A stretch of 64,000 nucleotides of DNA from Bacilli bacterium (GCA_017428495.1 JAFRQS010000011.1:140215-204214), one strand, 5' to 3'; counted from the first letter of the stretch, positions 6,104 through 62,634 are shown. Notes: a model not told the origin generated them from the letters alone. Numbers and translations are program-made.

Positions 6104-6874
6104 TTAAAATCCTAAAAAATGTAATATAGTCATTATATCTACCCTTGTTAACAAACATATAAGTGCTGCTAAAGATAGATAAGGTCCAAACGGCAATTCA
6201 TGATTATTATTACTCTTTATTTTATCTAAAATAAGTGTCACGGGAAGTGCTATGAAAGCTGCTAAAACTATTGTAAATAAAGATATTTGCCATCCTAAAA
6301 CCATACCAAATATTAACATTAACTTAATGTCTCCGCCCCCCATTGATTCTCTTTTGAATGCCTTATCACCTAATAATTTAATAAATAACAATGCTATAAA
6401 CGGAATAATCATATTCATAAATGTTGGTAATAATATATCTATTCCACCTACTATAATTTTTAATATTAATATTAATAATCCGCAAAATATTAACAATTCA
6501 TCTGGAATTATCATGTATAAAAAATCTGAAATCATTATTATAAGCAACATAGATGCAAAAACAAGTGCAATAAACATTTCTACAGAGATCCCAAATATTT
6601 TATATATAAGTGCAAAAACTATACCTGTAAAAAGTTCAAATATAGGATAAAATATAGCTATCTTTGCTTTACAATTTTTACATTTACCACCTTGAAACAA
6701 GTATGAAAATACAGGTATTAATTCAAAAGGCCCTAATTTATGGTTACATTTAGGGCAATGAGAAGAAGGATTGATTAATGACATATTATTAGGTAGTCTA
6801 TAACCAACCACATTATAAAATGATCCAAAAATCAATCCAAATATAAAGAATACTATTAAATAATATAATTCCAT
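6104..6874 (-). CDS. pilD: type IV prepilin leader peptidase (A24 family)
   Basis: 256 aa polytopic membrane protein; N-terminal tetracysteine CPKCNHKL...CKNCKAKI and catalytic GGGDIKLM motif. Confidence 0.85.
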   Translation of the reverse strand: MELYYLIVFFIFGLIFGSFYNVVGYRLPNNMSLINPSSHCPKCNHKLGPFELIPVFSYLFQGGKCKNCKAKIAIFYPIFELFTGIVFALIYKIFGISVEMFIALVFASMLLIIMISDFLYMIIPDELLIFCGLLILILKIIVGGIDILLPTFMNMIIPFIALLFIKLLGDKAFKRESMGGGDIKLMLIFGMVLGWQISLFTIVLAAFIALPVTLILDKIKSNNNHELPFGPYLSLAALICLLTRVDIMTILHFLGF

Positions 6875-6882
6875 AAACCCAC

Positions 6883-9498
6883 CTACATTGCTGAAATATT
6901 TTGATACATATCAAACATTGGTACAACTATTGAAAGTAATATTACTCCGACAATTGCCGCTAAAATAATAATCATTACTGGTTCAATAAATGCTTTAATT
7001 TGATTTACAGCATTTTTATGCTGTTCACCATAATAATTAGCAACCTTATCCATCATAGTACCTAATTGACCTGTTTTTTCACCAGTAAGAATCATTTCAT
7101 ATGCAATATTTGGGAAAGCCCAATGATTTTTAAATGAATTAGATATTGCTTCACCTTTAGCCAAATTAGTTATTGTATCAAATATTAACATTTTATATAT
7201 TTCATTATTAGTTATTTTACTTAATACTTCCATACTATCGGTAATATATACATTATGATTTAATAAAGACGCAAATGTCTTAGTAAACATTGTTACCTCA
7301 TTGTAAATTATTATTTTACCAATTATAGGAAGATTCATAACAAAAGTTTGGACTATTGATTTAAATACTTTTATATTCTTAAATAATATTATAAATACTA
7401 TTACAAACACTAAAAATCCAAGTAATACCTTCAACCAATTACTCTGAAGGAAAGCACTAATATTTATAATTTTTTGTGTTATACCAGGCACCCCAGTTTC
7501 CATATTTGAATATATACTTACAAATTGTGGAATAACCTTTACCATAATAAATATTAATATCCCTAATGCAAATAATAATACTGCAGCTGGATATGATATA
7601 GCACTTATCATTTGCTTCCTAGTTTTATCAGTATCTCTATAATATGAAGCCATATCATCCAATGTTTCCGGCAAATCACCAGTAAGTTCTGATGTCTTAA
7701 CCATATTAATAAGCAATCTAGGGAAAATATTTCCTTGTTTTGCTAAAGCTTCACTAAAATTTTCTCCCATTGTAAGTTCATATATTATTGATTTATATAC
7801 ATTTTTATGACCACTTTTTTTACTCTGTTTTGACAAAATTTTAACTGATTCCACCAATGTCATACCTGATTTTAAAAATGTAGATAATTGAGTTAAAAAG
7901 AAATCCAACTCAGTTGCTTTAAACTTTGGTGAAAATAATGTTAAAGTCTTTGCAAAATTCTTTTGTGGAGTAATTTCATATACTTCATATCCCTCAGCCA
8001 TCAAGAATGAGTGAACATCTAATTTCGAGAAAGCTGCAAAATATCCAGTTTCTACTTTACCAGTTTCAGAATTTTTAGCAACATATTTATACATTATTTT
8101 TTCATCACTACGTATAGCATCAGCGCCATCAAAGTCAATTAATAATGTTTGTCTTTGCAATTCTCTTCTATTTTTTCTATCTTTAACTATTGATAAATTA
8201 TTATACCAATTAGAAATCTTTTCATTTAAAGTTTTTCTTTCACTTCTAGCTTTTTGTTTGCTCTCTTCTTGAGCTTTCTTAATTAATAAAGCCTTCTCTT
8301 TTCTTTCTCTTCTTGCTTGCTCTTTCTCTTTTTTTATTTTCTTGTTTTTTTCTCTTTTTTCATTTAATAAAAGAATTGCCTTATCTTCTTTTTCTTTCTT
8401 AGCCTTTGCTTGTTGCTCAAATTTTTCTTGTAATTTCTTCTTTCTTTCTTCTTCTTTCTTTTGCTTCAACAAAGCCTTCTCTTTTTCTCTATTTTCTTTT
8501 CTCTGAGCTTTTAATAATTTTTTATCTTGTAAAACACCACCATTAGTAGTAACAGTAGTAGACAAAATATCTTCTTCAGATTTCTTTCTTAATTTAGCCT
8601 CTTCTTCCGCTTGTACCTTTAATCTTTTTTCTTCGGCAATCGCTCTCTTTTTTGCTTCCTTTTCACTAATTATTTTGTTTCTTTTTGCTTCTTTTTCTGC
8701 TTTAATTCTATTTTTTTCTTCCTCTCGAGCTTTTATCTTTGCTTCTTTTTCTGCTTTAATTCTATTTTTTTCTTCCTCTCGAGCTTTTATCTTTGCTTCT
8801 TTTTCAGCAATTATTCTATTCTTTTCTTCTTCTTGAGCTCTTACCTTTGCTTCTTTTTCAGCAATTACTCTATTCTTTTCTTCTTCTTGAGCTCTTACCT
8901 TTGCTTCTTTTTCAGCAATTATTCTATTTTTTTCTTCTTCTTGAGCTCTTACCTTTGCTTCTTTTTCAGCAATTACTCTATTTTTTTCTTCTTCTTGGGC
9001 TCTTACCTTTGCTTCTTTTTCAGCAATTATTCTATTTTTTTCTTCTTCTTGAACTTTTATCTTTGCTTCTTTTTCAGCTTTATGCATTTCTTCTTGTTGC
9101 CTTTTTTTCTCGGCCTGCTCTTTTAACATTTCATCTTTTTTATCCTGAATTTTTTTCAAGAACTTAGATAAAAAAGATTCTTTTTTTACTCTAGTTTCTT
9201 TTTTACTATTAAATTCTTTTAAAGAAATTGCTGGTATGTTAGATATATCTTTAGATGAAGACTTATCATCTTCTTTATTTTTCAACGCTAATTTTTTTTG
9301 TTTTTCTTCTTTTTTATCTGCTTCAATCAATTTTTTTTCAATTAAATTTTCTATTTTTTTTCTTTGCTTTTCTATCTCTATTTTTTGTTTTCTAATCTTT
9401 AATTCTTCTTTAGTTAGATTTTTACGCACAAAAGAGGCATTTTGCTGCCTTTTATCATCATTATTATCAGAATGTGATAAAACATTATTGTTTTTCAC
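6883..9498 (-). CDS. pilC: type IV pilus / type II secretion platform protein (GspF/PilC family) with ~470-aa N-terminal K/E-rich repeat extension
   Basis: C-terminal ~400 aa is a canonical two-repeat GspF domain (KIMYKYVAKNSETGKVETGYF..., TGDLPETL, 3 TM). N-terminal 470 aa is charged, low-complexity and helical, with nine 16-aa tandem repeats AEKEAKVRAQEEEKNR(I/V)I. No in-frame stop separates the two parts. Confidence 0.82.
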   Translation of the reverse strand: MKNNNVLSHSDNNDDKRQQNASFVRKNLTKEELKIRKQKIEIEKQRKKIENLIEKKLIEADKKEEKQKKLALKNKEDDKSSSKDISNIPAISLKEFNSKKETRVKKESFLSKFLKKIQDKKDEMLKEQAEKKRQQEEMHKAEKEAKIKVQEEEKNRIIAEKEAKVRAQEEEKNRVIAEKEAKVRAQEEEKNRIIAEKEAKVRAQEEEKNRVIAEKEAKVRAQEEEKNRIIAEKEAKIKAREEEKNRIKAEKEAKIKAREEEKNRIKAEKEAKRNKIISEKEAKKRAIAEEKRLKVQAEEEAKLRKKSEEDILSTTVTTNGGVLQDKKLLKAQRKENREKEKALLKQKKEEERKKKLQEKFEQQAKAKKEKEDKAILLLNEKREKNKKIKKEKEQARRERKEKALLIKKAQEESKQKARSERKTLNEKISNWYNNLSIVKDRKNRRELQRQTLLIDFDGADAIRSDEKIMYKYVAKNSETGKVETGYFAAFSKLDVHSFLMAEGYEVYEITPQKNFAKTLTLFSPKFKATELDFFLTQLSTFLKSGMTLVESVKILSKQSKKSGHKNVYKSIIYELTMGENFSEALAKQGNIFPRLLINMVKTSELTGDLPETLDDMASYYRDTDKTRKQMISAISYPAAVLLFALGILIFIMVKVIPQFVSIYSNMETGVPGITQKIINISAFLQSNWLKVLLGFLVFVIVFIILFKNIKVFKSIVQTFVMNLPIIGKIIIYNEVTMFTKTFASLLNHNVYITDSMEVLSKITNNEIYKMLIFDTITNLAKGEAISNSFKNHWAFPNIAYEMILTGEKTGQLGTMMDKVANYYGEQHKNAVNQIKAFIEPVMIIILAAIVGVILLSIVVPMFDMYQNISAM
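8660..9100. repeat. ~9 tandem 48-bp coding repeats inside pilC N-terminal extension
   Basis: Near-identical 48-53 bp units visible directly (e.g. 8692-8744 = 8746-8798); each encodes a 16-aa AEKEAK(V/I)RAQEEEKNRxI unit. Confidence 0.85.
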
Positions 9499-9611
9499 TC
9501 AAATCACACCTCCAATAGCCAAACTCCTATACTATATAAAGTATATCATATTTTAGTAAATATTAAAACTTTTTTTTGCTTTTTTCATATAATATTTTGA
9601 GGAGTGAGAAT

Positions 9612-9899
9612 ATGTATAATCAATTTCCATATTCATATTATAATAATAGTCCTTTTATGTCATCAAATAGTTCACCAATGGGATTTCTAAATAAAAAAAA
9701 TTTTAATTGGGATTCATTTCTAAATAATGCTCAAAGGACCTTAAATGTTATAAACCAAGCAATGCCTATTTATAATCAAGTTAAACCAATGTTTAGAAAT
9801 ATGGGAACAATATTTAAAGTAATTGGTGAATTAAATGCTGCACCAACAATCAATTCAATTGATAATGTCTCAAATAACTCACCATCATTTTTTGCATAA
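9612..9899 (+). CDS. small YqfQ/VrrA-like hypothetical protein
   Basis: ORF-track call trimmed to ATG at 9612 after GGAGTGAG. MYNQFPYSYYNN...QAMPIYNQVKPMFRNMGTIFKV... has weak YqfQ-like composition and sits next to trmK-sigA as yqfQ does in B. subtilis. Confidence 0.4.
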   Translation: MYNQFPYSYYNNSPFMSSNSSPMGFLNKKNFNWDSFLNNAQRTLNVINQAMPIYNQVKPMFRNMGTIFKVIGELNAAPTINSIDNVSNNSPSFFA

Positions 9900-22231: not shown

Positions 22232-23395
22232 CTATTTTTTATACATTATATTCATATCTACAAACCCATTTATACCATCTACTATTCCATTACTACATTG
22301 TTGCCATATTACATACTCACCTTTATAATCAGACTTACCATCTATATAATGTGCAAGCCAAACAGGATAAGAACTTCTCCATATTTTTTCTAAATAAAAC
22401 TTACTACCATATAACATTGCTTTATAACCATTTTCTTCAATTGTATCCATAAAAACATTAGCTATTTCATTAATATCATGAAAACTAATCTTATATTCAT
22501 TCCAATACTTCCAATTTTCCCAATCAAAAGTAACACCAAGTTCCAATTCTTCACCATTTAATTTATCAATTACCCATAAAGCCTGTTTTTTTGCATCATC
22601 TATATTATCAGTAATAGAATATAAATAAACGCCTACTTTTAATCCTGCTTCTTTAGCTTTCTTAATATTATCTAAATATTTTCCATCTAATTTCGGTTCA
22701 TCATCATTAGTTTGTACACCAATTCTAATAATAACAAAAGCAACACCTGAATCCTTTACTTTAACAAAATCTATGTTACCCTGCCATTCAGATACATCAA
22801 TACCAATTTCATTATTATCATCTTTATACAATTCGAACATCTCAGATATAGGAGTAGTTAAATTATTATGATATGTACTACTATTAATTTTATCTACAAC
22901 ATTCAAAGTAACATTTACACTAGTAGTATTATTACTACTATCCGATATATTATAAATCAAATTATATGTACCTATTTTATTAATATCATATTTTCCATCT
23001 ATTACACATTTTAAATCTCCAGTATAATTATCACCATATGTAATTAAATTACACAAATCTTTATCATAACCTTTTAAAACAGTCCTATTTGTACCACTAA
23101 ATACAAGTGGATATTCTGTATCAACCACATTTATAATAAATTTATACAAAAAATTCTTTTTATCACTTTTAAATATAATTTCATATTCACTACTTTCAAC
23201 TAAATCTGTATCAATTTTATAATTATCACTTATTATTTCAATATCATCTATATTACTTAATAAATCATATAAATATACATCACTATATACTTCAACAGTA
23301 TTATTAATATTAAAAGAAATACTATCTATTTCATTAACCTTCTCTTTACAACCAGATAGCAAAAAAATACTAAGTAAAAATACTATTATCTTCAT
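22232..23395 (-). CDS. GH25-family muramidase (lysozyme) lipoprotein
   Basis: Lipobox LLSGC; C-terminal GIDVSEWQGNIDF...VIIRIG...GVYLY... TIM-barrel GH25 signature; N-terminal Ig-like region. Confidence 0.8.
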   Translation of the reverse strand: MKIIVFLLSIFLLSGCKEKVNEIDSISFNINNTVEVYSDVYLYDLLSNIDDIEIISDNYKIDTDLVESSEYEIIFKSDKKNFLYKFIINVVDTEYPLVFSGTNRTVLKGYDKDLCNLITYGDNYTGDLKCVIDGKYDINKIGTYNLIYNISDSSNNTTSVNVTLNVVDKINSSTYHNNLTTPISEMFELYKDDNNEIGIDVSEWQGNIDFVKVKDSGVAFVIIRIGVQTNDDEPKLDGKYLDNIKKAKEAGLKVGVYLYSITDNIDDAKKQALWVIDKLNGEELELGVTFDWENWKYWNEYKISFHDINEIANVFMDTIEENGYKAMLYGSKFYLEKIWRSSYPVWLAHYIDGKSDYKGEYVIWQQCSNGIVDGINGFVDMNIMYKK

Positions 23396-23466: not shown

Positions 23467-24780
23467 TTATTCTGCAAACACATATGGATCTTCAGTTGTT
23501 CCAGATCCTTTCATTTGAACTCCAGAGATTAGATATACTGAAGGCCTTACGCCTGGAGTGCCTTTCGCATGTGTGTGAGTACTACGACTTGTGGTCGCAT
23601 ACCACACGCTAAAAGCCATAGAAGATGGAAGCGCTGGGGAAATTGTCCATCCATAATTACTCATCCAGTTACTACCACAAAAACCAGTGACATTTAATAT
23701 ATTTGTTGCACACTTACTACTCCCAGATGCATATCCAAAATCACTTGGATATATTAATCCCACTTTGCCTATCCATTCAAATGTTCTTACTACCTCATCA
23801 TCACAATATGTTCCCGATGTGCACTCCTTCCCTTGTGTCCCCCTTTCATCTGCATATGCTCTTGCTAAGGTTACTATGCTAGTCACTGTTACTTCACTTG
23901 TATACCATGTTGCATCCCCTATTAACTCTTTAGAACTTAATTTTAGTACGTAATCTTTGTTGAAATTTCCGTCTCCTATTGCATTGTTTTCACCATTATA
24001 CCAATTTGCATTTGTAGATAATGTTGAGTTTAAATAATCACTATTTAATTCTTTCATTATATCTGCGCCTTCATATGTTCCAGATGGCCCCCATTGATTT
24101 ATTCCATATCCGCTATTTGCATTGCTTGTATCCCATGAAAAGCTTCCTATCGAATCTTTTCTTACCAATTTTACTCTTCCATCAAATAATCCTACTATTC
24201 TCCATACTTCACATGTACTACTTGTTGGATTACTATTGTCCGCACAATTAAAATATGCATAATTATTTGGATTACTTCCTTGATATCTATACTCTACTGC
24301 TGTATATTTCTCATTTTGTGTTTTATCATGTTCTACTTTTATTAGTCCTTCACTATTTGTTCCATTATTATATTTACTTATCAATAACTCTGCTGCATCT
24401 GTATATCCACTTATACAATTTATATTATCTTTAGTTCCTCTACATGTTATTCCATTAAATTTACCACCACTTGCGCCTTTTAACTTTACAGTTGCTATAC
24501 CATCACTATCATATGTAATACTACAACTAGAATAATCATCATTTAACTTTGCTACATCAGTGCATGGTATACTTGTTGCATTATAATTTGAATTTATTGT
24601 TTGTTGTGCCAAATAATCTTTTTCTGCATTTGTTGCTATTAATTTTGCACTATCTCCCATAGTTTTTAATTTTGTTTCTTTTATTGTATTCATTATTTGA
24701 GGTACTGCTATTATTAATATTACTGCTAATATTACTATTACTGCTAATAATTCTACTAATGTAAATCCTTTCTTTTCCAT
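23467..24780 (-). CDS. large (437 aa) type IV pilin-like protein
   Basis: Start trimmed to MEKKGFTLVELLAVIVILAVILIIAVPQI (RBS GGAGGAG). Class III prepilin signal G|FTLVE with hydrophobic alpha1, Cys-rich ~400-aa globular part. Paralogue of 25027 and 39116 genes. Confidence 0.8.
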   Translation of the reverse strand: MEKKGFTLVELLAVIVILAVILIIAVPQIMNTIKETKLKTMGDSAKLIATNAEKDYLAQQTINSNYNATSIPCTDVAKLNDDYSSCSITYDSDGIATVKLKGASGGKFNGITCRGTKDNINCISGYTDAAELLISKYNNGTNSEGLIKVEHDKTQNEKYTAVEYRYQGSNPNNYAYFNCADNSNPTSSTCEVWRIVGLFDGRVKLVRKDSIGSFSWDTSNANSGYGINQWGPSGTYEGADIMKELNSDYLNSTLSTNANWYNGENNAIGDGNFNKDYVLKLSSKELIGDATWYTSEVTVTSIVTLARAYADERGTQGKECTSGTYCDDEVVRTFEWIGKVGLIYPSDFGYASGSSKCATNILNVTGFCGSNWMSNYGWTISPALPSSMAFSVWYATTSRSTHTHAKGTPGVRPSVYLISGVQMKGSGTTEDPYVFAE

Positions 24781-24818
24781 AATACACTCCTCCATATTCT
24801 ACAATTTTATTATATCAC

Positions 24819-25026: not shown

Positions 25027-26121
25027 TTATTTAACAGCATTACCCCCTGGATCAGGTGCAAATGGATTAGGCGCATATTGTAGTTTCTCGCCTACCCAAC
25101 CACGCGAATCAATCATATATCCTTCACCATCATATGTACACATAACAGTTCCTAATTCATCTAGAATACAGGAATATAAACCATCTGACGCTCCAATACT
25201 TTTAACTGGTGCAGGTGCACTTACTGCATATACATTTTCTATTCCTAATACTTTATTAAGAAATGAATCTTTTAATGCTAATGAACCAACATCATTTCCT
25301 GTACACTTATCTTTTCCAAATACATCTGCTAAGTGTTGTTTTTCATATTCATAATTATCATATTCAAAGCAATTAATTTCATTACTAGTGTTTCCTTGAT
25401 ACTTTATACATACACTTTTTGGTGTTAAATCATCATATCTTGATTCTCCTTTTGGCAATTTTACAAATACATTACTATTTAAACTATTATAATCTGTTAT
25501 TTGCTCATATTCATAATTTACATTGGTTACTATTCCTTCATCAATTAATACAGTATCGCCATGTAATAAATCCTCTCTTAGACTAAAACCAGCAGGTGCT
25601 ACTTGGTCCGTACAATATGGTTCTCTATCTTCTTCCTTAAAATTTAATTCAGCCATTTCCATACACTTATCATAATTAATATTATATGTTAAATTTGTAA
25701 TTTGTGGAATTCCTAATGCATATATTGATTCAGAATCAGTAAGACCTTGTCTACAATCCATATTATCGATTGTACCAATACATGTCATTCCTTTAAATTT
25801 TCCAGTTGCTGTTCCTTTTAAATTAATATATGCTTCTCCTTCTGGTGATACTTCTACACGACATCTTGAGTACTCATCTTTTGAAATCTTAACTATTTCA
25901 TCACAATCCATGACTTCAAAAGATAAATCTGTTTTACCCATATTTTTTGCTATATACTCTTTTTCTGCTCTTTTTAATATTAATTTAGCACTACCTTCCA
26001 TTGTTTTTAATCTTGATGTTTTTATTGTATTCATTATTTGTGGCATTGCTATTATTAATATTACTGCTAATATTACTATTACTGCTAATAATTCTACTAA
26101 TGTAAATCCTTTCTTTTCCAT
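25027..26121 (-). CDS. large (364 aa) type IV pilin-like protein
   Basis: Same prepilin N-terminus MEKKGFTLVELLAVIVILAVILIIAMPQI and ~45 bp of identical 5'UTR as 23467 gene; divergent Cys-rich C-terminal region. Confidence 0.8.
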   Translation of the reverse strand: MEKKGFTLVELLAVIVILAVILIIAMPQIMNTIKTSRLKTMEGSAKLILKRAEKEYIAKNMGKTDLSFEVMDCDEIVKISKDEYSRCRVEVSPEGEAYINLKGTATGKFKGMTCIGTIDNMDCRQGLTDSESIYALGIPQITNLTYNINYDKCMEMAELNFKEEDREPYCTDQVAPAGFSLREDLLHGDTVLIDEGIVTNVNYEYEQITDYNSLNSNVFVKLPKGESRYDDLTPKSVCIKYQGNTSNEINCFEYDNYEYEKQHLADVFGKDKCTGNDVGSLALKDSFLNKVLGIENVYAVSAPAPVKSIGASDGLYSCILDELGTVMCTYDGEGYMIDSRGWVGEKLQYAPNPFAPDPGGNAVK

Positions 26122-26189
26122 AATACACTCCTCCATATTCTATAATTTTATTATATCACACAAAAAAATAATTGCATTTTAAAATAATA

Positions 26190-26248: not shown

Positions 26249-26803
26249 TTATTTTTCTTCTTTTTTTGTAGTTTTCTTTGTTGTAGATTTTTTTGTTGTT
26301 GTAGTTTTCTTTGCTGCTTCTTTTTTAACAGGCTCTTTTTCTTCTTTTTTAGTTGCTGTTTTCTTTGCAGCTGGTTTCTTTTCTTCTACTTTTTCTACTT
26401 TTGTAGTTTTCTTTTCTAAAGCAACTTTAGCTGGTTTATATTCTTTACCAGTTAAAGCATCTTTTGCTATATCAACTAAATCTGTAAATGCTTTTGGATT
26501 ATCTATAGCAAGTTCTGCTAACATCTTTCTATTTATTGTTAATCCTGCTTTATTAAGTCCATTTATGAATTTAGAATAGCTAATTTCATTTTCTCTACAA
26601 GCAGCATTAATTCTTGTAATCCATAATTTTCTAAAGTCTCTCTTCTTTTGTCTTCTATCTCTATAAGCATAAACACCAGAATGTAAAAGTTGTTCTTTTG
26701 CAGTTTTATAAAGTCTATGTTTACTTCCAAAGTAACCTTTAGCTTCTTTTAAAATTTTCTTTCTTCTAGCTCTTGCTACTGTTCCACCTTTAACTCTTGC
26801 CAT
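26249..26803 (-). CDS. rplT: 50S ribosomal protein L20 with ~65-aa lysine-rich C-terminal extension
   Basis: [19 protein letters not shown]...[24 protein letters not shown] is canonical L20 (~118 aa); then [30 protein letters not shown]... tail. Confidence 0.9.
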
Positions 26804-39115: not shown

Positions 39116-40468
39116 TTATTCTGCAAAAACATATGGATTAGATAATGTCCCAGAACCTTTCATTTGTACTCCTGGTATTAGATATACAGAAGGTCTAACT
39201 GCTGTAGTATTATCTGCATTATTTTTTACAATATGTCCACTAAAAGTGTACCAAACGCCACGAGCATCTGAAGATGTAGGGGCAGATGAAAGTAACCACC
39301 CATAATTCCCCATCCAGTCTGTATCACAATAAGTATTACTAGATGATATGTTGTCTATAGTACAATTACTATTTCCTGATGCGTATCCAAAGTCACTTGG
39401 ATAAACTAATCCAACTTTACCCACCCATTCAAATGTTCTTATAACAGTATCGTTACAAAAACCACCAGATGAGCATAACTTTCCTATTGTTCCCCTTTCA
39501 GCAGCATAAGCATCCGCTAATGTTATTATACCATTATATGGTATTGCTCCTAAGTACCATATTGCATCTCCAATTAGTTCTTGCGCACTTTCTTTTAATG
39601 CATAATTCTTATTAAAATTACCACTCCCTAAATTATTATTATTTCCACTATACCAGTTAGCATTTGCTAACAGTGTTGGGTCTAAATAATCTGTATTTAG
39701 TTCTCTCATCAAATCTGCACCAGTATATGTCCCAGAGGGCCCCCATTGATTTATTCCATATCCACCATTAGCTGAACCCGCTCCAGTTTTAGGGCTTGTA
39801 TCCCATGAGAAACTTCCTATTGAATCTCTTCTTACTAATTTTACTCTTCCATCAAATAATCCCACTATTCTCCATACTTCGCATGTACTACTTGTTGGAT
39901 TATTATTATTTGTGCAATTAAAATATACATAATTATTTGGATTACTTCCTTGGTATCTATATTCCACTGCTGTAGCTTTTGGTATTGCACTTGTATCATG
40001 TTCCACCTTTATTAATCCTTCACCATTTGTTCCGTTATTATATTTACTCATTAATAATTCTACTGCATCAGAGTATCCTGGAAGTGGTGTTATTTCAGTA
40101 CAATTCATTTCATCTTTTGTACCAGTACATTTGATTTTGCCGAATTTACCACCACTTGCTCCTTTTAATTTTACTGTTGCTACTCCATTACTATCATATG
40201 TAATGCTACAACTTGAATAATCATCACTTAATTTAGCCACATCTGTACATGGTATACTTGTTGCATTATAATTAGCGTTTACTGCTTGTTGACTTAAATA
40301 GTCTTTTTCTGCATTTGTTGCTATTAGTTTTGCGCTGTCTTCCATAGTCTTTAATTTTGTTTCTTTTATTGTTTTCATTATCTGTGGTACTGCTATTATA
40401 AGTATTACTGCTAATATTAGTATTACTGCTAATAATTCTACTAATGTAAATCCTTTTCTATTCTTCAT
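39116..40468 (-). CDS. large (450 aa) type IV pilin-like protein
   Basis: MKNRKGFTLVELLAVILILAVILIIAVPQI prepilin N-terminus; >70% identical to 23467 gene over N- and C-terminal thirds (…RPSVYLIPGVQMKGSGT…PYVFAE), divergent middle. Confidence 0.8.
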   Translation of the reverse strand: MKNRKGFTLVELLAVILILAVILIIAVPQIMKTIKETKLKTMEDSAKLIATNAEKDYLSQQAVNANYNATSIPCTDVAKLSDDYSSCSITYDSNGVATVKLKGASGGKFGKIKCTGTKDEMNCTEITPLPGYSDAVELLMSKYNNGTNGEGLIKVEHDTSAIPKATAVEYRYQGSNPNNYVYFNCTNNNNPTSSTCEVWRIVGLFDGRVKLVRRDSIGSFSWDTSPKTGAGSANGGYGINQWGPSGTYTGADLMRELNTDYLDPTLLANANWYSGNNNNLGSGNFNKNYALKESAQELIGDAIWYLGAIPYNGIITLADAYAAERGTIGKLCSSGGFCNDTVIRTFEWVGKVGLVYPSDFGYASGNSNCTIDNISSSNTYCDTDWMGNYGWLLSSAPTSSDARGVWYTFSGHIVKNNADNTTAVRPSVYLIPGVQMKGSGTLSNPYVFAE

Positions 40469-50144: not shown

Positions 50145-51152
50145 TCAATTTTTAATATATGAATCTAAGTGACTTCCAAATGAATATATTTTCCAATTAT
50201 TTCCATATTTTACCAAACTAATTTCATAATTTTCAGGTATAATATGTGGAGTTGAAATACTAAAAGTACCTTCAACATTAGGCATAATTCTTACATATGC
50301 CATATCATGTTTTTTATTATACCTTACCTTTGTGCTTAATCCAGGATTATTTATAGATTCATAAAAACTTTTAGCTTCTAAAAAATTCCCCCAATCTTTT
50401 TTCGTACTAGGATATATTAAATTATCTAAAAATGAAATATTGAGATTGATTTCTTTTATATTAGTTATAAATTGATAACATATATATAATATTTGTATAT
50501 CTTCGTATTCTGAATCATTTATTATACTTTCTAAATCTTCCATCGAACAATCTTTGCCATATAAATTTGACCAATATTTAGAATTAGTAATTGATTGAGT
50601 ATTATTTAAGCTATCGCCCAAATAAATTATTGATGCTCTTTCATTAAAATTATATTTGTTATTAAAATCGTAATATTTAATTAAAATATCATATGTTTTT
50701 AAAATGATAGTTTCAAAATCTTCAACATATTTTCTTACACATGTAAATCTTAAATTCTCATCTGAAGATATTAATCTTTTAATCTTATCAAAATCAGCAT
50801 GCAAATACACACCATACATAACATCCTCTATAGTTTCATATAAACTACACTTTGTCCCATCAGACAACACAAATTGAATATTCTGTTTTTCCACATTTTC
50901 ATAATCTATCAACAATTTATTTAATTTTTCCTTCTCATCTGGATATTTATCAATCATTAAATTTAGGATTTTTTTAATATATACATTTTCACCATAAACA
51001 GCATATTTTCTTAATAGCATTAATTTTGTATTTATTTCAACATAATCCTCATCATTAAATGAATCAATTAAATTATGTTTAATTAACTTTTTTGAAAACT
51101 TTTTATATTCATTTACTGTATATACAAACAACCATAATACATCTAATTCCAT
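50145..51152 (-). CDS. hypothetical protein (element cargo)
   Basis: 335-aa clean ORF directly downstream of the P-loop ATPase gene. Confidence 0.55.
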   Translation of the reverse strand: MELDVLWLFVYTVNEYKKFSKKLIKHNLIDSFNDEDYVEINTKLMLLRKYAVYGENVYIKKILNLMIDKYPDEKEKLNKLLIDYENVEKQNIQFVLSDGTKCSLYETIEDVMYGVYLHADFDKIKRLISSDENLRFTCVRKYVEDFETIILKTYDILIKYYDFNNKYNFNERASIIYLGDSLNNTQSITNSKYWSNLYGKDCSMEDLESIINDSEYEDIQILYICYQFITNIKEINLNISFLDNLIYPSTKKDWGNFLEAKSFYESINNPGLSTKVRYNKKHDMAYVRIMPNVEGTFSISTPHIIPENYEISLVKYGNNWKIYSFGSHLDSYIKN

Positions 51153-51211
51153 AACTAACCTCTTACTATTACTATTGATTTAATTATCAAAGTTTAATTA
51201 ATATTATATAC

Positions 51212-53311
51212 TTAAAATCCTAAATTTTTATAAATTTTTATACTATTATTATCTACTTCTATATAAAAATCATCTGATGAAAGATTATTAATTTGTTCTT
51301 TTATTAAATCTTTTATATCATTATTTACTTTTATTTCACAATGCATAATAAAATTATCTATTGGATATTTAATATCAAAAGTATAACCTTCTAATATATT
51401 AGATATATTTTCAACAATGTCCTTATATAATTCTTTATATTCATCATAAAAAGAATCTACATTTTCATTTGAAGATTCTTCTTTTCTATACTTTTGTCTA
51501 TTAACTCTTTTATTTAAATTCTCTACTGTATAATAGGTATAAGACATATCTTTTAAAGCTCTTATATCTCTAGTTATTTCACCCTTTTTATAACATGCAA
51601 ATTTCTTATATATAACTGTATCTCTAAATACTGGATAACCTTTAATTGGAAATATAATAGTTTTAAAATAAAGTTGTTTTACTTCTTCTGGTGTCATTAA
51701 ATCTCTGCCCATCAAAGAAGTAGATCTATTCCCATTAAAATCACTTTTGGAAATAGATTGACTAACTGAATTTGATTCTATTGTCTTCTTACCTAATCTT
51801 TTAGATATCGCTTCAGCAGTTTCTTGTGTATTAGTCTTTAAATAAACTAAACCACAGTTATCTAATATTGTTTGAGCTACATCTTTACCATATACATTAT
51901 CTAATTGAGCAAAAGATTGTATAAAAAACTGAAATCTCATACCTCTACTTCTTGCTACTGAAATAATAGTACTAATATCTTCAAGTGGTGGACAGTTAGC
52001 AAATTCATCTAATAACCAATCAATTTGTACTGGTAATATTTTTTCAGGGATATTGTTGGCAATTTTTACCAATTCCTTATATAATAATCCAACTATTATA
52101 GTAACAAGTTTATAATAAGTCTTATCTTCATCTGGAACAATTATATACATTGCTGTAGGTTCTTTACCTAAAATACCAAAATCAAAATCACTTGTTGATG
52201 TAATATTTGATACATTAACATCATCAAATAAACTCATCTTTTCTGAAAAAGTTGCAGTTATACTTTTATATGTATTTTCTGCACTAGAAAAAATAGATGT
52301 TAATGTATCCTTGCTTTTTAGTCCATAAGGTTTACTATCTACATAAGTAGTAAGAATAGGAAAATTATTTTCATTCATAGATGAATTTTGAAATTTCTTA
52401 ATACTTGTTAGAGTTATTTTTTCTCTATCAATTTTCCCATCCTTATATTCTTCTAAAAATAAACCAATTAATCCTTCTAATAAATTCTTAGCAGAATTAT
52501 TCCAAAATGGATCTTTCTCTAATCCTTTATCATTCATAATCATTGCTGAAATAGAAGTAATTAGCTTATTACATTCAGCAAGATGTCTCATAGCATTATT
52601 TTTATATAAAGTTAAATTAGGTTCAATCTCTTTTAATTCATTCTCTTTTAAAATAATTTCATTTTCTTTATCATTATAATTTAATCCTTCCTTTTTCATT
52701 AACTCTATATCTTCTTTTAACATTTCAATACCACTATATAAATAGTTAATATCTGATTCAACATTAATAGCTAATTTATCATATTTCATATATTCTTCAT
52801 ACTCATTAATAATTGGCTCAAGTAAATTTATTTTATTAGATAATTCTGGATTTCTAAAATCAATTGTAATTATATTATATGAATTATCTTTAAACATTTT
52901 TGAAGTAGTATTAAATATTTCACCTTTTGGATCTGTTATAAATACACTTCTTTTTTTAGTTGCAGTAGCAATAAAACTACACATTGGAATAACTGCTGTA
53001 ACAGACTTACCACTTCCAGTAGAACCTAAAAAACACCAATGAGGTGTTTCTCTATCAAACCATACATATTTCTTATTTCTACTATACCATATAGGAAATC
53101 CAACCTCATTAATATTTTTTATTTCTTCTTTATTATAAATGCTATTTATTTCTTTAAATGTAGCAAATCTTGCACTTCCATATTCATTACTATTATTTAC
53201 ATCTTTAAATAAAACAATATAAATATTTTCAACATTATTAAAAATTATTGTATATGGATTATCTTTACTTTTTTTAATCCTTAATTTAATCATAACTATT
53301 CCTCCTATCAA
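51212..53311 (-). CDS. TraG/VirD4/FtsK-like P-loop ATPase (type IV coupling-protein-like)
   Basis: 699 aa; Walker A FLGSTGSGKS, DPKGE, Walker B WLLDEFAN, RSRGMRF motifs characteristic of coupling-protein ATPases; no N-terminal TM seen. Confidence 0.65.
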   Translation of the reverse strand: MIGGIVMIKLRIKKSKDNPYTIIFNNVENIYIVLFKDVNNSNEYGSARFATFKEINSIYNKEEIKNINEVGFPIWYSRNKKYVWFDRETPHWCFLGSTGSGKSVTAVIPMCSFIATATKKRSVFITDPKGEIFNTTSKMFKDNSYNIITIDFRNPELSNKINLLEPIINEYEEYMKYDKLAINVESDINYLYSGIEMLKEDIELMKKEGLNYNDKENEIILKENELKEIEPNLTLYKNNAMRHLAECNKLITSISAMIMNDKGLEKDPFWNNSAKNLLEGLIGLFLEEYKDGKIDREKITLTSIKKFQNSSMNENNFPILTTYVDSKPYGLKSKDTLTSIFSSAENTYKSITATFSEKMSLFDDVNVSNITSTSDFDFGILGKEPTAMYIIVPDEDKTYYKLVTIIVGLLYKELVKIANNIPEKILPVQIDWLLDEFANCPPLEDISTIISVARSRGMRFQFFIQSFAQLDNVYGKDVAQTILDNCGLVYLKTNTQETAEAISKRLGKKTIESNSVSQSISKSDFNGNRSTSLMGRDLMTPEEVKQLYFKTIIFPIKGYPVFRDTVIYKKFACYKKGEITRDIRALKDMSYTYYTVENLNKRVNRQKYRKEESSNENVDSFYDEYKELYKDIVENISNILEGYTFDIKYPIDNFIMHCEIKVNNDIKDLIKEQINNLSSDDFYIEVDNNSIKIYKNLGF

Positions 53312-53645
53312 TTTGTTTTTTTAATTCAAATTGATAAAAGGGGGGTCCTCTAATTAGATATAAAAAAAAAGTGACTTTTGTCCCAAAATAATTGTAACAA
53401 AAATCACCTTTTAATAATAATCCAATTATTTCAATCATATATAAAATCCTTTAAGCAAAATAAAATTCAATTTGAATCTTATAATTGCAAATATAAAATA
53501 ATAAAAAATGATATTTTTATTTAATTAAAGTATAATTTTATATATTAAAGAATAAAAGTGAGAAATATGCACATTAGTAACATATGAAATGCAATAATGG
53601 ACTAAAATTAATATTTTTGTTATAATATGAGTAAGGAGAAAAAAT

Positions 53646-54815
53646 ATGTTAAATTACTTTAAAAAAAAATTAAATATTATTTTTTTAATAATATTACTTA
53701 CTATTCCATTTAAGATAAATGCAAGTACTTATGATATTTTTGGTTTAGAATTTAAAATTAATAATACTGATTTCAATACATTTATAAAAGATAATATTAA
53801 TAGAGCACAATTAGATGTTGATTTTCTAAATTTTATAGATGCTGTTTTCAATGATGGTGGATTTTTATATGCTACAAATAATGATACATCAAAAGAAATA
53901 TTTATTTATGCTTATGAATATAATGATATTAATTTGAATGTACAAAGCAAAGAAAATATTAAAAAATTTGAAAATATAATTTTATATCAAAATAGTGCTG
54001 AAAATCATGATATCTATGAAATTAATAATTATAAATATATTTTTTTTCAATATAACTATGAAAACTTATTTATAATTGACTACTATACTATAATGAATGG
54101 ATATGTTTTTTTAATTAGATTTCAACAAAGCAGCAATTTTACAGTTCAAGAAAAGCAAGATATAAAATCGTTAATTGACAATATTAATTATATTAATTAT
54201 CAAAAGGTATATAAGATTTTTGATTTAACATTAAATTATAATGAATTTGGATGGTTTTATTTTACTAGAGATAATTTCAAAAATAATCCATCATTAAATA
54301 CCCTAGGAATTAATTACGAACACATTAATAATTTTTTTAATAATAATAAAGATTGTTATATGAATGCAGTTAAAATAACAGATAATTTAAAAGAAGAATT
54401 TTTTATAATTGCTAAAGATAACAATAATTATAAAAATTTAAATGCAGAATCGAATAAAAATATAAATAAATATATAGAAGAAATCTCACAATTAACAAAT
54501 AGCAAAAATATATATACATATGAATTTAATAATTTCAAATATATTTTTGCTGAATACTATGACAAAAACCTTAATTATAATATAATAGATTATTATACTA
54601 TTTTTGATAAAAAAGTATATATAATTAAATTTCAACAAGAAAAAAAATTTAGCGCAGTTCAAAAAGAAAACATAAAAAAAATAATTGATAGTATATATTT
54701 TAAAAATGACAATGAATCTTTAATTGTAAATAATTATTATTTATTATATTTTTGCATAATTATTGTATTAATTACATCATTTTTCAAAATTTTAATAAAA
54801 AAAAGAAAGCACTAA
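53646..54815 (+). CDS. secreted/membrane-anchored protein with internal two-domain duplication
   Basis: Signal peptide MLNYFKKKLNIIFLIILLTIPFKINAS, two homologous ~100-aa modules (…IDYYTIMNGYVFLIRFQQ… / …IDYYTIFDKKVYIIKFQQ…), C-terminal TM. Confidence 0.6.
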   Translation: MLNYFKKKLNIIFLIILLTIPFKINASTYDIFGLEFKINNTDFNTFIKDNINRAQLDVDFLNFIDAVFNDGGFLYATNNDTSKEIFIYAYEYNDINLNVQSKENIKKFENIILYQNSAENHDIYEINNYKYIFFQYNYENLFIIDYYTIMNGYVFLIRFQQSSNFTVQEKQDIKSLIDNINYINYQKVYKIFDLTLNYNEFGWFYFTRDNFKNNPSLNTLGINYEHINNFFNNNKDCYMNAVKITDNLKEEFFIIAKDNNNYKNLNAESNKNINKYIEEISQLTNSKNIYTYEFNNFKYIFAEYYDKNLNYNIIDYYTIFDKKVYIIKFQQEKKFSAVQKENIKKIIDSIYFKNDNESLIVNNYYLLYFCIIIVLITSFFKILIKKRKH

Positions 54816-54842
54816 GAATAACATATTATTCTTAGTGCTTTT

Positions 54843-55688
54843 TTATTCAATTATTTTAATTATTTCATTTATATATTTTGAAACACTTATTATTTTTTCG
54901 TGTTCTTTTTTATACAATAATTCATAATTATTACTTGGCAATAATTTTAGCCATTCCCCATTATCAGCTATCCATTGTCCATTAGCAATTTTATGCCATG
55001 TATAATTTGAATCTGTATTTGTCTCTAAATCATTATATATTCCATTTTCTTTCACATAGCCTAATATTGTAGATTGTAAATTAGGATTATCTCTAACGCG
55101 AAGATTGGATACCATTACTATTAATTGATCATTATTTTCATTTCTTTTGACATCTTGTGTAATCATAATATTCCCTACTTTCTTCCATAAATATTTGCTA
55201 TATTTTATTATTGTTTCATTGTTTATAAACAATGCATTAAATGGTTCTATGGTGTTTTTTAATTTATAAACATTTCCTACTTTTTCATTAATATAAATAT
55301 ATTCAGTTGGCATTACAAATTTGCCTCTCTGAACTTCTAAGTGGCAATGCTTTGACACACCTCCTGCTGTCCCCATATTGGAATATGTTTCTCCTTGTTT
55401 AAATCTTGAACCCACTTTTGGTGGATTATTATCATGACCAGTCCATAATGTCATATAATCAATAGTACCATTTGCATACTTCACCTTTTCATTACTTTGA
55501 AATGCTATGCCTCCACCATATTTTTGTGGGTCAACATGAACTATAGTACCATCAAAAGGTGCAATTAAATTTGTCACATAATAAGGCTTCAAAATACCAA
55601 AGTCAATTGCTTTAGTACTCTTATGGCTTCCAACATTCATTTCTTGACTTATCCATGTTTTAGAAATAGGAAAAATTGCACATTGCAT
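54843..55688 (-). CDS. M23-family peptidoglycan peptidase with SH3b-like C-terminal domain (endolysin-like)
   Basis: HxxxD (HKSTKAID) and HxH (HCHLEV) zinc motifs; C-terminal YTWHKIANGQWIADNGEWL SH3b-like wall-binding segment. Confidence 0.72.
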   Translation of the reverse strand: MQCAIFPISKTWISQEMNVGSHKSTKAIDFGILKPYYVTNLIAPFDGTIVHVDPQKYGGGIAFQSNEKVKYANGTIDYMTLWTGHDNNPPKVGSRFKQGETYSNMGTAGGVSKHCHLEVQRGKFVMPTEYIYINEKVGNVYKLKNTIEPFNALFINNETIIKYSKYLWKKVGNIMITQDVKRNENNDQLIVMVSNLRVRDNPNLQSTILGYVKENGIYNDLETNTDSNYTWHKIANGQWIADNGEWLKLLPSNNYELLYKKEHEKIISVSKYINEIIKIIE

Positions 55689-55689
55689 A

Positions 55690-56052
55690 TTATCCTATTC
55701 CTATCTCTGTTTCTTTTTCATATTCTTTTTCCTTAAAATCAACTTTTATTGTAAACATTTCTTTTAATTTAATCAAATCGTTGTATCCATATAATGAAAT
55801 TCCACTTATAAAAATTACCTTCATTCCATCAATTAAATTAAGATTATTTCCATCTATAGATATAATTAATATATTAGGATTTAAATAACTACATAAATAT
55901 AATAAAATGCAACTTATAATTATAAAAAAAGCCTTAAATAATCCATTTAAAAATTTATTTTTGTTCCACTCTTTCTTTATTGTTGCAAGTGAACAACCCA
56001 ATAATACATTTGAAATCATGACACAAATTAAACCAATAATTATTTTTATCAC
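55690..56052 (-). CDS. small polytopic membrane protein (holin/antiholin or toxin-immunity candidate)
   Basis: 120 aa, 3 predicted TM, translationally coupled to flanking genes. Confidence 0.5.
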   Translation of the reverse strand: MIKIIIGLICVMISNVLLGCSLATIKKEWNKNKFLNGLFKAFFIIISCILLYLCSYLNPNILIISIDGNNLNLIDGMKVIFISGISLYGYNDLIKLKEMFTIKVDFKEKEYEKETEIGIG

Positions 56053-56342
56053 TTTAAATCTCCTTTTAAATTTGGCAATTCATAAATTTTATTAACCATG
56101 GAAGTTATCATTCCATTTCCACCAAGTTTATGGTAACTTCTATAAATTTCTTCTATATTTTCTTTTATATAACTAGGACAATAACCAAAATCAATGTATA
56201 GTTCATACATTCTAATAATCTCATTACTAAGTAAGGCTTTGATTCCGTTTTTTAATCCCATATATTGTTTAAAAATATATATTATTAAAGAAGTTATCAT
56301 AGTGAACAAAAATTCTATCCAATATTTTAATATAAAATTCAT
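56049..56342 (-). CDS. small membrane protein (holin-like or Rhs-toxin immunity candidate)
   Basis: ~97 aa, N-terminal TM, YHKLGGNG motif; first gene after the Rhs toxin, directly upstream of the M23 peptidase. Confidence 0.5.
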   Translation of the reverse strand: MNFILKYWIEFLFTMITSLIIYIFKQYMGLKNGIKALLSNEIIRMYELYIDFGYCPSYIKENIEEIYRSYHKLGGNGMITSMVNKIYELPNLKGDLK

Positions 56343-56422
56343 ATATATTTCCACCTTTTACTTTATATTAAAATGAATTAATAATAATAATAATATTATT
56401 ACTAACCCATTTCAATACTATT

Positions 56423-62602: not shown

Positions 62603-62634
62603 TTTTTCTCCTTTCAATGTGTAAAAAAGAACAA

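Follow-up and report, generated by a model that had tools for sequence, protein, structure and literature searches.

A long, charged and length-variable N-terminal arm on the PilC/GspF-type platform protein of a Bacilli clade

The window analysed here, a stretch of 64,000 nucleotides from a Bacilli bacterium, carries a platform protein gene next to a prepilin peptidase gene, together with three large pilin-like genes. These genes and the sites upstream of pilC are as follows.

6104..6874 (-), pilD, prepilin peptidase (Pfam A24_N_bact and Peptidase_A24)
6883..9498 (-), pilC, 871-aa platform protein comprising arm and core (ORF list; coordinates include the stop codon)
9509..9513 (-), GGAGG ribosome-binding site, 10 nt before the GTG start (read from the sequence)
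9531..9560 (-), promoter-like TTTACT-18-TATAGT (consensus scan, 9/12 positions; weak)
23467..24795 (-), large pilin-like gene, 442 aa (KGFTLVELL motif; TIGR02532, PF07963)
25027..26136 (-), large pilin-like gene, 369 aa (motif and profile matches)
39116..40468 (-), large pilin-like gene, 450 aa (motif and profile matches)

pilC is one uninterrupted open reading frame whose product is identical to MBQ6282249.1, annotated 'type II secretion system F family protein [Bacilli bacterium]'. It starts with a GTG codon at 9498, and the N-terminus MKNNNVLSHS is kept in sister species. The promoter-like site sits within the 77-nt gap that separates pilC from a divergent yqfQ-like ORF; a consensus scan of the pilC upstream region found no excess of such sites over shuffled sequence. 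pilD lies 8 nt downstream, the two genes are probably co-transcribed, and they are adjacent in 80/80 related loci. The upstream flank holds dnaG-sigA-trmK and the yqfQ-like ORF and the downstream flank DUF1653 and serS, a gene order that agrees with the sigA-trmK and serS neighbours named in the initial annotation and adds dnaG, the yqfQ-like ORF and DUF1653 to them; the synteny dnaG-sigA-trmK-yqfQ-pilC-pilD is kept across related loci. The 442-aa pilin-like protein is a likely PilD substrate, and the N-termini of the window pilins weakly resemble ComGC.

The C-terminal part of the protein is the region by which it can be assigned to a family.

6886..8094 (-), canonical PilC/GspF core, aa 469-871 (Pfam, NCBIfam, hydrophobic segments, PDB profile matches)

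Here, Pfam identified two T2SSF (PF00482) stretches, of which aa 534-657 matched best, with E 2e-49 and 167 bits (cut-off 25.2). A Kyte-Doolittle scan gave three hydrophobic segments (629-666, 682-718 and 830-867), in line with the family's three transmembrane segments flanking a pair of cytoplasmic domains. Because positions 1-401 of the NCBIfam GspF profile align with aa 470-868 (276.7 bits), the canonical core begins at about residue 470, where the initial annotation had placed the GspF domain; positions 4-405 of the PilC profile align with aa 470-869. Both profile scores fall under their equivalog cut-offs (424 for GspF and 700 for PilC), so the core belongs to the T2SSF family without being a named equivalog. 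A profile search of the PDB matched only the core (3JC8 PilC, 2WHN, 3C1Q).

Ahead of the core lies an arm of 468 residues with the following features.

9265..9411 (-), aa 30-78, first predicted long helix (AlphaFold, pLDDT ~80-89)
9208..9249 (-), aa 84-97, conserved short motif D[IT]S.IP.[IV].LK.F (per-sequence alignment)
9145..9186 (-), aa 105-118, conserved amphipathic helix KKESFLSKFLKKIQ (hydrophobic moment)
8701..9078 (-), aa 141-266, seven near-perfect 54-bp (18-aa) tandem units (TRF and unit listing)
8593..8700 (-), aa 267-302, two degenerate repeat units (unit listing)
8527..8565 (-), aa 312-324, hinge LSTTVTTNGGVLQ (non-helical, pLDDT <50)
8095..8478 (-), aa 341-468, basic helix and core-adjoining motif (conservation, dN/dS)

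The arm is composed of 23% K, 18% E and 8% R, has 53% charged residues and only 1 Pro and 3 Gly, and bears a net charge of +42, its positive charge being concentrated in aa 325-450. The longest charged run in the pilC product spans 416 aa, against at most 143 aa in all other window proteins. Pfam searches at E up to 1 gave nothing meaningful for aa 1-470, 300-470 or 1-126, sequence and profile searches of the PDB gave no match to the arm, and it contains no Walker motif. It can be divided into a head (aa 1-125), a shaft (aa ~126-340) with the hinge at its distal end, and a basic segment (aa 341-468). Within the head, the first helix is moderately conserved (0.4-0.6 among 36 homologs), the short motif falls inside a low-confidence non-helical stretch (aa 77-110, pLDDT <50), and the amphipathic helix, with a hydrophobic moment of 0.52 against an arm median of 0.21 and an equivalent segment in most close homologs, is a candidate membrane or partner contact. 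The hinge is the sole Gly/Thr-rich break in the arm, and comparable breaks are found at the same place in other species. The core-adjoining motif, WYNNLSxVKDRKNRRELQRQTLLIDFDG, is present clade-wide.

The PilC frame contains no stop over the 468 arm codons, whereas the other two same-strand frames contain 37 and 68, and the probability of no stop calculated from local base composition is ~2e-20; the long open run is not due to chance, as had been argued at the outset. Since the frame is open, under purifying selection and conserved throughout the clade, the arm is translated together with the core; this sequence evidence establishes a single 871-aa PilC/GspF-type inner-membrane platform protein, and the original proposal of a repeat region fused to PilC without a stop stands. 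An internal start at Met469 that would yield a PilC of normal length was considered and rejected: no Shine-Dalgarno-like sequence lies upstream, and the preceding 130 codons have a dN/dS of 0.02. A start there may nevertheless give an additional product.

Selection is unevenly distributed along the gene. Compared with a sister species (L087), dN/dS was 0.27 for aa 1-125, 0.02 for aa 341-468 and 0.02 for the core; six further relatives showed the same pattern with saturated dS. The repeat zone gave the highest values in the gene (0.4-0.7). Among 36 homologs, conservation of aa 341-468 (0.65-0.91) is level with that of the core, and the most conserved part of the arm is the non-repetitive 130 aa adjoining the core. 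The repeat zone is missing in most close homologs (occupancy 0.1-0.3).

A homolog search covering 1.84 billion representatives (clusters at 50% identity) returned ~38 clusters with matches of at least 476 aa at at least 45% identity, ranging over 476-839 aa and always with the core at the C-terminus; shorter matches at this identity resemble fragments. Beyond the arm-bearing clusters identity falls to 27-33%, the matches being 400-aa proteins in which residue 3-5 aligns to residue 469-470 here, and the long-arm proteins are sharply set apart from canonical 400-aa PilCs. An in-frame arm was present in 72/72 relatives whose loci were uncut by a contig end, with lengths of 146-498 aa (median 250; 498 aa in L055). 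The arm is not peculiar to one genome and defines a whole clade. Its sequence and length vary freely among species, several of which have independently reached ~430-460 aa ahead of the core, and in three relatives (L014, L017, L018) it has almost no charged segment. Hydrophobic segments open the arm in 65/72 relatives; in the present subgroup the head is without them and has the amphipathic helix only. Members of the arm-bearing clade are common across metagenomes from gut and rumen, and the present host is an uncultured gut or rumen bacterium.

TRF resolved the tandem repeat at 8684..9078 into 7.3 copies with a 54-bp period and 94% match, encoding an 18-aa unit, AEKEAKVRAQEEEKNRII. TRF and direct listing thus replace the 16-aa, 48-bp unit of the initial annotation, and of the nine near-perfect repeats described there just seven are near-perfect and two are degenerate. 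About 126-160 residues, roughly one third of the 468 in the arm, belong to repeats, and the remainder is non-repetitive and K/E-rich. The suggestion that repeat number varies was borne out by comparing independent assemblies of the same species, in which the protein is 871 or 853 aa long, the gap being exactly one 18-aa unit (P0124 and P0123 carry one unit fewer); another 871-aa version has the repeat variants in a different order. Every indel is a whole in-frame unit. In-frame tandem repeats have arisen recurrently and independently in other lineages (120 bp x 4.4 in L055, 156 bp x 2.7 in L019 and 132 bp x 3.6 in L012), and degenerate, species-specific repeats occur in P0003, P0012 and P0037; a crude self-periodicity scan, whose scoring scheme introduces a bias, served only to confirm that near-perfect repeats occur in the present species alone.

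A stop or frameshift separating the repeats from the GspF domain in independent data had been named as evidence against the fusion. Three independent assemblies have a continuous ORF (871, 871 and 853 aa) with the repeats fused to the core, and the single frameshift, in L081 (one of four same-species assemblies), affects only the head. There, a 23-to-12-nt replacement cuts off the first 107 residues, leaving a 730-aa protein that starts at Met126 and in which the repeats are still fused to the core; if the lesion is real, that strain can do without the head. Of the five same-species cluster members, two are incomplete, namely L081 with this local frameshifting replacement and P0121, which is annotated as partial. 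The species-representative contig (L001) ends within the arm, ~65 codons downstream of the repeats; this break is not attributed to them.

AlphaFold predicted helices at aa 30-78, 109-218, 226-311 and 325-419 with pLDDT 70-90, in a whole model that is poor (pTM 0.29, shallow alignment of 36 sequences). Long charged helices are a common default in structure prediction. Relative to shuffled sequences, opposite-charge pairs at i/i+4 are enriched (E-to-K/R, z +4.3; K/R-to-E, z +4.1) and same-charge pairs are depleted (z -4.8), a pattern that holds outside the repeats too. Hydrophobic periodicity at 3.5-3.67 residues in the repeats is 0.48 against a shuffle mean of 1.29, with 99% of shuffles higher; aa 325-419 give a weak 3.5-residue heptad signal (p ~0.04), and heptad periodicity is absent from the repeats and the other shaft segments. 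A coiled coil was ruled out for the repeats because this hydrophobic periodicity is missing. We infer that the shaft is an ER/K-type single alpha-helix which, going by the published properties of such helices (PMC5347031, PMC4183817), would act as a semi-rigid spacer or constant-force tether rather than a coiled coil. The helices may instead pack as a helical hairpin or an oligomeric coiled coil.

The initial annotation stated that no assembly ATPase gene is nearby, and the window agrees: within these 64 kb, part of a 206-kb contig, neither a Walker-A regular expression nor tblastn with the L055 PilB detected a T2SSE-type ATPase, the sole Walker-A match being a TraG/VirD4-like protein. None was found in the ~10 kb past the far window end in another assembly either; of the two sides past the window, one yielded short contigs and the other a mobile element. 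However, 15 more distant arm-bearing relatives (e.g. L055) have a gene for a PilB/GspE-type ATPase immediately after pilD, on the other strand and convergent with it, and this PilB is without the N-terminal part of the GspE profile. The genomic surroundings of the pilC core include an adjacent PilD and three pilin-like genes in the window; an adjacent ATPase was seen in the 15 relatives. Because arm-bearing relatives have PilB, the missing adjacent gene reflects the gene order of this subgroup, with serS after pilD, and is no evidence for an ATPase-free machine.

Residues 470-871 can be aligned over their whole extent to the GspF and PilC profiles. With canonical PilC/GspF/HofC proteins (M. 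xanthus 3JC8/3JC9, T. thermophilus 2WHN, V. cholerae EpsF 3C1Q) the locus shares two T2SSF domains, three hydrophobic segments, a prepilin peptidase neighbour and pilins in the window. The differences are that canonical proteins have ~400 aa rather than 871, at 27-33% identity, and start 3-5 residues ahead of the point matching residue 469; that the present core scores under all NCBIfam equivalog cut-offs; and that aa 1-468 are covered by no solved structure or Pfam family. ComGB of the Firmicutes competence pilus shares a monoderm host, a minimal machine without visible pilMNO and, weakly, ComGC-like pilin N-termini; in contrast, its profile NF041012 matches here from residue 533 only (160.7 bits, cut-off 240) and is outscored over the full length by the GspF and PilC profiles, and the comGA-comGG operon arrangement is missing. 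The GspE N-terminal part binds GspL. With PilM-PilN and GspL, the arm of most relatives would share, by analogy, the position of a membrane-anchored cytoplasmic element beside the ATPase docking site; it has no sequence or predicted fold similarity to them and is fused to PilC rather than a separate protein, and the relatives' PilB does not have the GspE N-terminal part that binds GspL-type partners. A further parallel is with single alpha-helix (SAH) domains such as myosin VI/X levers, INCENP and the CAF-1 KER (PMC5347031, PMC4183817, PMC10335832), which show the same E/K/R richness, excess of i/i+4 opposite charges, lack of a hydrophobic seam (here in the repeats), long uninterrupted predicted helices and placement between two functional protein parts; the arm differs in its ~340 predicted helical residues, far longer than characterised SAHs, its bacterial membrane-protein setting and its weak heptad character in aa 325-419.

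The first PilC domain is cytoplasmic in GspF/PilC topology, and no hydrophobic segment lies between it and the arm; we therefore infer that the arm is cytoplasmic. We favour, at somewhat better than even odds, a model in which it serves as a semi-rigid tether or spacer in the cytoplasm, with a length that can evolve. The weakly conserved head contributes a short motif and an amphipathic helix, followed by a variable, highly charged, predicted helical shaft whose middle was extended recently by in-frame 54-bp tandem duplications and still varies by whole units between strains. The mechanism is the least certain part of the model. In most relatives a hydrophobic, membrane-type head would hold the shaft at both ends so that it loops under the platform, where the PilB hexamer docks; in the present subgroup the anchor appears reduced to the amphipathic helix, and because the hydrophobic head is missing, double anchoring of the shaft has its weakest case here. 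Functional contact would be made by the conserved basic segment on the core side, with the repeats merely setting length. The arm may keep the ATPase, or some other partner in the cytoplasm, tethered or corralled at the platform, a role performed elsewhere by PilM-PilN or GspL; it would supplement the ATPase rather than replace it. A bolder version, which we regard as doubtful, is that PilC took over the missing PilM/N/O or GspL role, with arms forming struts or a cage around PilB, their length tuned by duplication. Membrane-anchored head, ER/K single-helix shaft and basic segment would then all be fused to PilC, and PilB would be held there without its usual N-terminal docking domain, in the setting of an uncultured, genome-reduced Bacilli lineage.

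The most serious competitor to the tether model, although we think it unlikely, is that the K/E-rich shaft and its repeats especially are tolerated filler, produced near-neutrally by AT bias (AAA/GAA codons) and slippage in a reduced genome. The low occupancy and high dN/dS of the repeat zone, the variable copy number and the freely differing arms of other species are as expected from filler, as are the 54% A of the coding strand and the 70-aa K/E/T-rich tail of ribosomal protein L20 in the window; since this AT-rich genome makes other such tails, part of the arm may indeed be filler. Yet none of 72 complete clade members has lost the arm, aa 341-468 are constrained like the core, aa 1-125 have a dN/dS of 0.27, the charge pattern is non-random even outside the repeats, several species arrived independently at similar lengths, and the indels are all whole in-frame units. 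Alternatively, the net-basic arm (+42) could resemble the Lys/Glu/Arg-rich single helix of CAF-1 and contact DNA or RNA on the cytoplasmic side of a pilus machine of the competence type. The clustering of positive charge in aa 325-450, the ComGC-like pilin N-termini and the precedent of a KER single helix documented as a DNA-binding spacer (PMC10335832) are in keeping with this, but the core scores as PilC/GspF and not ComGB, no com genes were seen nearby, and arms nearly without a charged segment exist (L014, L017, L018), which makes it improbable.

Slippage could also act as a switch, with the repeats or the numerous A7-A8 runs in the arm DNA toggling PilC and piliation as a phase-variable contingency locus. 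Copy number does differ between samples and one assembly is frameshifted; however, since a 54-bp unit is 18 codons and divisible by three, gaining or losing copies changes the protein's length but keeps the frame, as in the observed variant that differs by 18 aa, the L081 lesion is a replacement rather than a homopolymer slip, and restart at Met126 would be possible after a frameshift in the head. We give this explanation little credence, and slightly less to the initial suggestion that the arm stands in for an assembly or retraction ATPase or PilM in a pilD-pilC module without a motor: the absence of a T2SSE ATPase from the window and the ~10 kb beyond would fit, but the window is only 64 kb of the contig, the arm has no Walker motif or recognisable domain, and the PilB/GspE-type genes beside pilD in arm-bearing relatives speak against the substitution. 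Least credible of all is an artefact of assembly or annotation, whether mis-assembled repeats, a false fusion or two genes read as one. Assemblers often go wrong in tandem repeats, two of five cluster members are incomplete and L001 terminates within the arm; against this stand three continuous independent assemblies, the fusion in dozens of species and the joined repeats and core of L081.

Of the core parts of type IV filament machines, PilC/GspF is understood least, and debate continues over the way in which it links the movement of the ATPase to the extraction of pilins. The core family is already known, and the literature searched yielded no published description of a PilC that bears such an arm. 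The arm is invisible in databases because the annotation reads just "type II secretion system F family protein". With its constant PilC arm of 150-500 aa, in which a conserved core-side segment is combined with a shaft of freely evolving length, the clade offers a natural experiment on what lies between the platform, the membrane and the motor when a monoderm machine is minimal. It also supplies, from a bacterial membrane protein, a very long candidate single alpha-helix that changes in length between strains by whole repeat units. If arms did form struts or a cage around PilB, a minimal type IV filament machine would have found a new solution in its architecture.

The pilC and pilD genes are co-oriented, with pilD starting 8 nt past the pilC stop codon, and a small yqfQ-like ORF diverges from pilC:

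6883..9498, minus strand: pilC, 871 aa, GTG start
10 nt upstream of the pilC GTG: GGAGG
6104..6874, minus strand: pilD, 256 aa
9576..9899, plus strand: yqfQ-like ORF (Pfam YqfQ, 26.0 bits versus a cut-off of 27)

The gene order dnaG-sigA-trmK-(divergent yqfQ-like)-pilC-pilD is common to the related set, and the small ORF is kept at this site in most related loci. PilD contains two A24 peptidase domains (Pfam). In PilC, two T2SSF domains occupy the C-terminal half (Pfam, E 2e-49), and full-length alignments to the NCBIfam GspF and PilC profiles cover residues 470-869, in agreement with the initial annotation, which had placed the start of the PilC/GspF domain at about residue 470. The protein scores under every NCBIfam equivalog cut-off, with the ComGB profile lower than GspF/PilC, and its database name is T2SS F family protein only. 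When a profile of 36 homologs was compared with the PDB, it matched PilC/GspF chains alone (3JC8, 2WHN, 2VMA, 3C1Q, 5NBG) and only through the core. These matches indicate that residues 469-871 form a complete, ordinary platform protein and that residues 1-468, the arm, are extra.

The arm consists of 23% Lys, 18% Glu and 8% Arg, has a net charge of +42 with one Pro and three Gly, and matched neither a Pfam family nor a solved structure. Its 468 codons contain no stop in the PilC frame, compared with 37 and 68 in the other frames of the same strand; the chance probability of such a frame is ~2e-20, which upholds the earlier argument that it could not be accidental. Against the 88% identical protein of a sister species (L087), dN/dS was 0.27 for aa 1-125 and 0.10 for aa 301-340, and for aa 341-468 it equalled that of the core (both 0.02). 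Six relatives more distant than L087 gave an identical ranking, but with saturated dS. No other charged run in the window approaches the 416 aa of PilC; that of DnaK comes second with 143 aa. Another charged low-complexity extension in this genome, a K/E/T/A-rich tail of ~70 aa, was observed on a housekeeping protein:

26249..26803, minus strand: ribosomal protein L20, 184 aa, Pfam L20 domain at residues 3-109

Relatives were scanned using one genome per species, yielding 80 loci with core identities from 55% to 100%. Their titles are those of uncultured Bacilli, Mollicutes, Tenericutes, Erysipelotrichaceae and "Clostridium sp. CAG:1193"; Muribaculaceae titles on some are probably binning errors. 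All 72 loci without contig-end truncation carry in-frame codons before the core (146-498, median 250). The best 120 matches from a search of 5.8 billion proteins span 603-901 aa (median 746). An exhaustive search of 1.84 billion representatives gave, at ≥45% identity and ≥476 aa, ~38 clusters of 476-839 aa, each with the core at the C-terminus; shorter matches at this identity resemble fragments. Among full-length matches the score then drops abruptly from ≥389 bits to about ≤230 bits, and the matches past this drop are 400-aa proteins of 27-33% identity, their residue 3-5 corresponding to residue 469-470 of the window protein. A motif adjoining the core, W(Y/F)NNLSFVKDRKNRRE..RQ.LLIDFEG.DA.RSE, is common to all members, and in the window's subgroup (L004-L007, L023) aa 341-468 are conserved at core level (0.65-0.91). 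The middle of the arm is a charged region that differs widely across the clade in both sequence and length. In-frame tandem repeats have arisen there independently in L055 (120 bp x 4.4), L019 (156 bp x 2.7), L012 (132 bp x 3.6, 96% identity), and L004 and L006 (42 bp), and related proteins P0003, P0012 and P0037 have degenerate repeats, each species-specific.

At the N-terminus of the arm, 65 of the 72 relatives have membrane-type hydrophobic segments. None was found in the window's subgroup, where the head instead carries a conserved short motif at aa 84-97, D[IT]S.IP.[IV].LK.F, in a low-confidence non-helical stretch, and a conserved amphipathic helix at aa 105-118, KKESFLSKFLKKIQ (hydrophobic moment 0.52, arm median 0.21). 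In L011:4831-6000, L012:4783-6000 and L018:5128-6000 the arm is nearly all Lys-periodic hydrophobic/aromatic repeat, e.g. FKYLFIGIYKLLYYVFKYLIFGFKY, which could form either transmembrane hairpins or in-plane helices.

The window's own array lies at 8684..9078 (TRF: period 54 bp, 7.3 copies, 94% matches). A codon-by-codon listing resolved it into seven near-perfect 18-aa units at aa 141-266, AEKEAKVRAQEEEKNRII and the variant AEKEAKIKAREEEKNRIK, followed directly by two degenerate units. The initial annotation had miscounted these as nine copies of 16 aa (48 bp), although the consensus it wrote down already has 18 residues. An exact copy of the window PilC, MBQ6282249.1, sits on a 206-kb contig, and its 90% cluster holds four further versions from independent assemblies. 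P0121 is partial. In P0122 (871 aa) the VRAQ...II and IKAR...IK unit variants are reordered relative to the window at aa 190-235; either gene conversion between units or mis-phasing of short reads could account for this. P0124 (853 aa) is shorter by exactly one IKAR-type unit, which is also missing from P0123, whose start is at Met126. The suspected variability in repeat number is thus borne out by same-species versions of 871 and 853 aa, exactly one unit apart. At the P0123 locus (L081:2930-2960), 23 nt corresponding to window ~9185-9207 are replaced by 12 unrelated nt, splitting pilC into a 107-aa N-terminal ORF and a 730-aa ORF from Met126. Whether it reflects strain variation or a scaffolding error, this replacement leaves the repeats fused to the core. 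Sister species (75-88% identity) have one to three degenerate units only, which marks the array as a recent expansion confined to the window species.

An AlphaFold model from 36 homologs was globally poor (pLDDT 61.8, pTM 0.29); within it, long helices are predicted at 30-78, 109-218, 226-311 and 325-419 (pLDDT 70-90), with breaks at 79-108 and a hinge at 312-324. Compared with composition-preserving shuffles, opposite charges at i/i+4 are enriched in the arm (z +4.3 and +4.1) and like charges depleted (z -4.8); without the repeats the values are +2.4, +3.3 and -2.6. This charge pairing, together with the absence of a hydrophobic seam from the repeats, is the signature of ER/K-type stable single alpha-helices, known to serve as spacers of some rigidity and as constant-force springs (PMC5347031, PMC4183817, PMC5812594). 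For the repeats, a coiled coil does not fit: they lack hydrophobic periodicity at 3.5-3.67 residues (0.48 versus 1.29 +/- 0.40 in shuffles). A marginal heptad signal was detected at aa 325-419 (p 0.04). Since an ideal alpha-helix completes exactly five turns in 18 residues, gain or loss of a unit would change the length by ~2.7 nm without rotating the parts beyond.

No T2SSE ATPase was found in the 64-kb window, which extends the earlier remark that pilD-pilC has no assembly ATPase nearby. Fifteen relatives, among them L055 with its 498-aa arm, carry an ATPase gene (450-560 aa) immediately downstream of pilD and convergent with it on the other strand; serS occupies this position in the window's subgroup. 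The location in the relatives' loci is:

~8000-9700, minus strand: PilB-type ATPase (other coordinates in L034, L066, L070 and L075)

These ATPases have the Walker A sequence GATGSGKSTT and match GspE/PilB profiles only from about position 105/177 on, and thus lack the N-terminal docking part. PilB-type ATPases without the GspE N-terminal part were recorded in L033, L034, L043, L050, L052, L055-L059, L062, L066, L070 and L075. They share LKLIELDDDD..DLK.AL.YT, followed by a variable 60-170-aa C-terminal tail that is Pro/Thr/Gln-rich or acidic; an acidic PilB tail might face the basic PilC arm. L018 and L057 have small and large pilin genes directly after pilD, and no pilM/N/O-like genes were seen by eye in the limited flanks of these clusters. 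The window itself encodes pilin-like proteins:

23467..24795, 25027..26136 and 39116..40468, minus strand: large pilin-like genes, KGFTLVELL class III signal (TIGR02532, PF07963)
22232..23395, minus strand: predicted lipoprotein with GH25 lysozyme and Ig-like domains, adjoining the two tandem pilin-like genes

The three proteins have 369-450 aa, two with almost identical N-termini, and their 300-400-aa C-terminal parts matched nothing in Pfam. By analogy with Streptococcus sanguinis PilB, a modular pilin (PMC8179133), they may be modular pilins. Given the ATPase in relatives and the pilins in the window, pilC-pilD is apparently part of a dispersed, complete minimal type IV filament system. Elsewhere, the window and L085 contain a mobile-element-like block, flanked in another assembly by a serine recombinase and HTH regulators:

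50145..63888: mobile-element-like block
51212..53311: TraG/VirD4-type coupling protein
56423..62653: 2076-aa protein, faint RHS/YD-shell matches recorded for the L085 homolog
62635..63888: phage Gp10_C-like protein

We lean, with modest confidence, towards the arm being a tether or spacer. The shaft would be a single-helix spacer of evolvable length, and the head, hydrophobic in most relatives, would contact the membrane or a partner. The whole arm might then tether or corral an ATPase or other cytoplasmic partner at the platform, possibly compensating for absent PilM-PilN or GspL-type parts. A specific strut or cage is rather improbable. The main competing explanation, in which the shaft would be low-complexity filler that the protein tolerates, is a lesser but serious prospect: sequence turns over freely in the shaft and other K/E-rich tails exist in the same genome, yet the arm is present in every complete clade member and its charge pattern is non-random.

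A basic helix binding nucleic acid, for which the CAF-1 KER helix (PMC10335832) is the analogue, is improbable, and on/off phase variation very unlikely. Less probable again is the earlier idea that the arm replaces the ATPase, which is contradicted by the coexistence of arm and PilB-type ATPase in 15 relatives. Least probable of all is an artefact; from its open frame and the selection on it, the arm is real, translated, constrained and clade-specific, it is probably cytoplasmic, and it combines a conserved basic segment beside the core with a charged shaft predicted to be helical.

Full-text literature searches turned up no account of a PilC/GspF protein bearing an arm of this kind, and none of pilus machinery in the lineage. 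The core is ordinary; for the arm and its conservation across the clade we found no earlier description.
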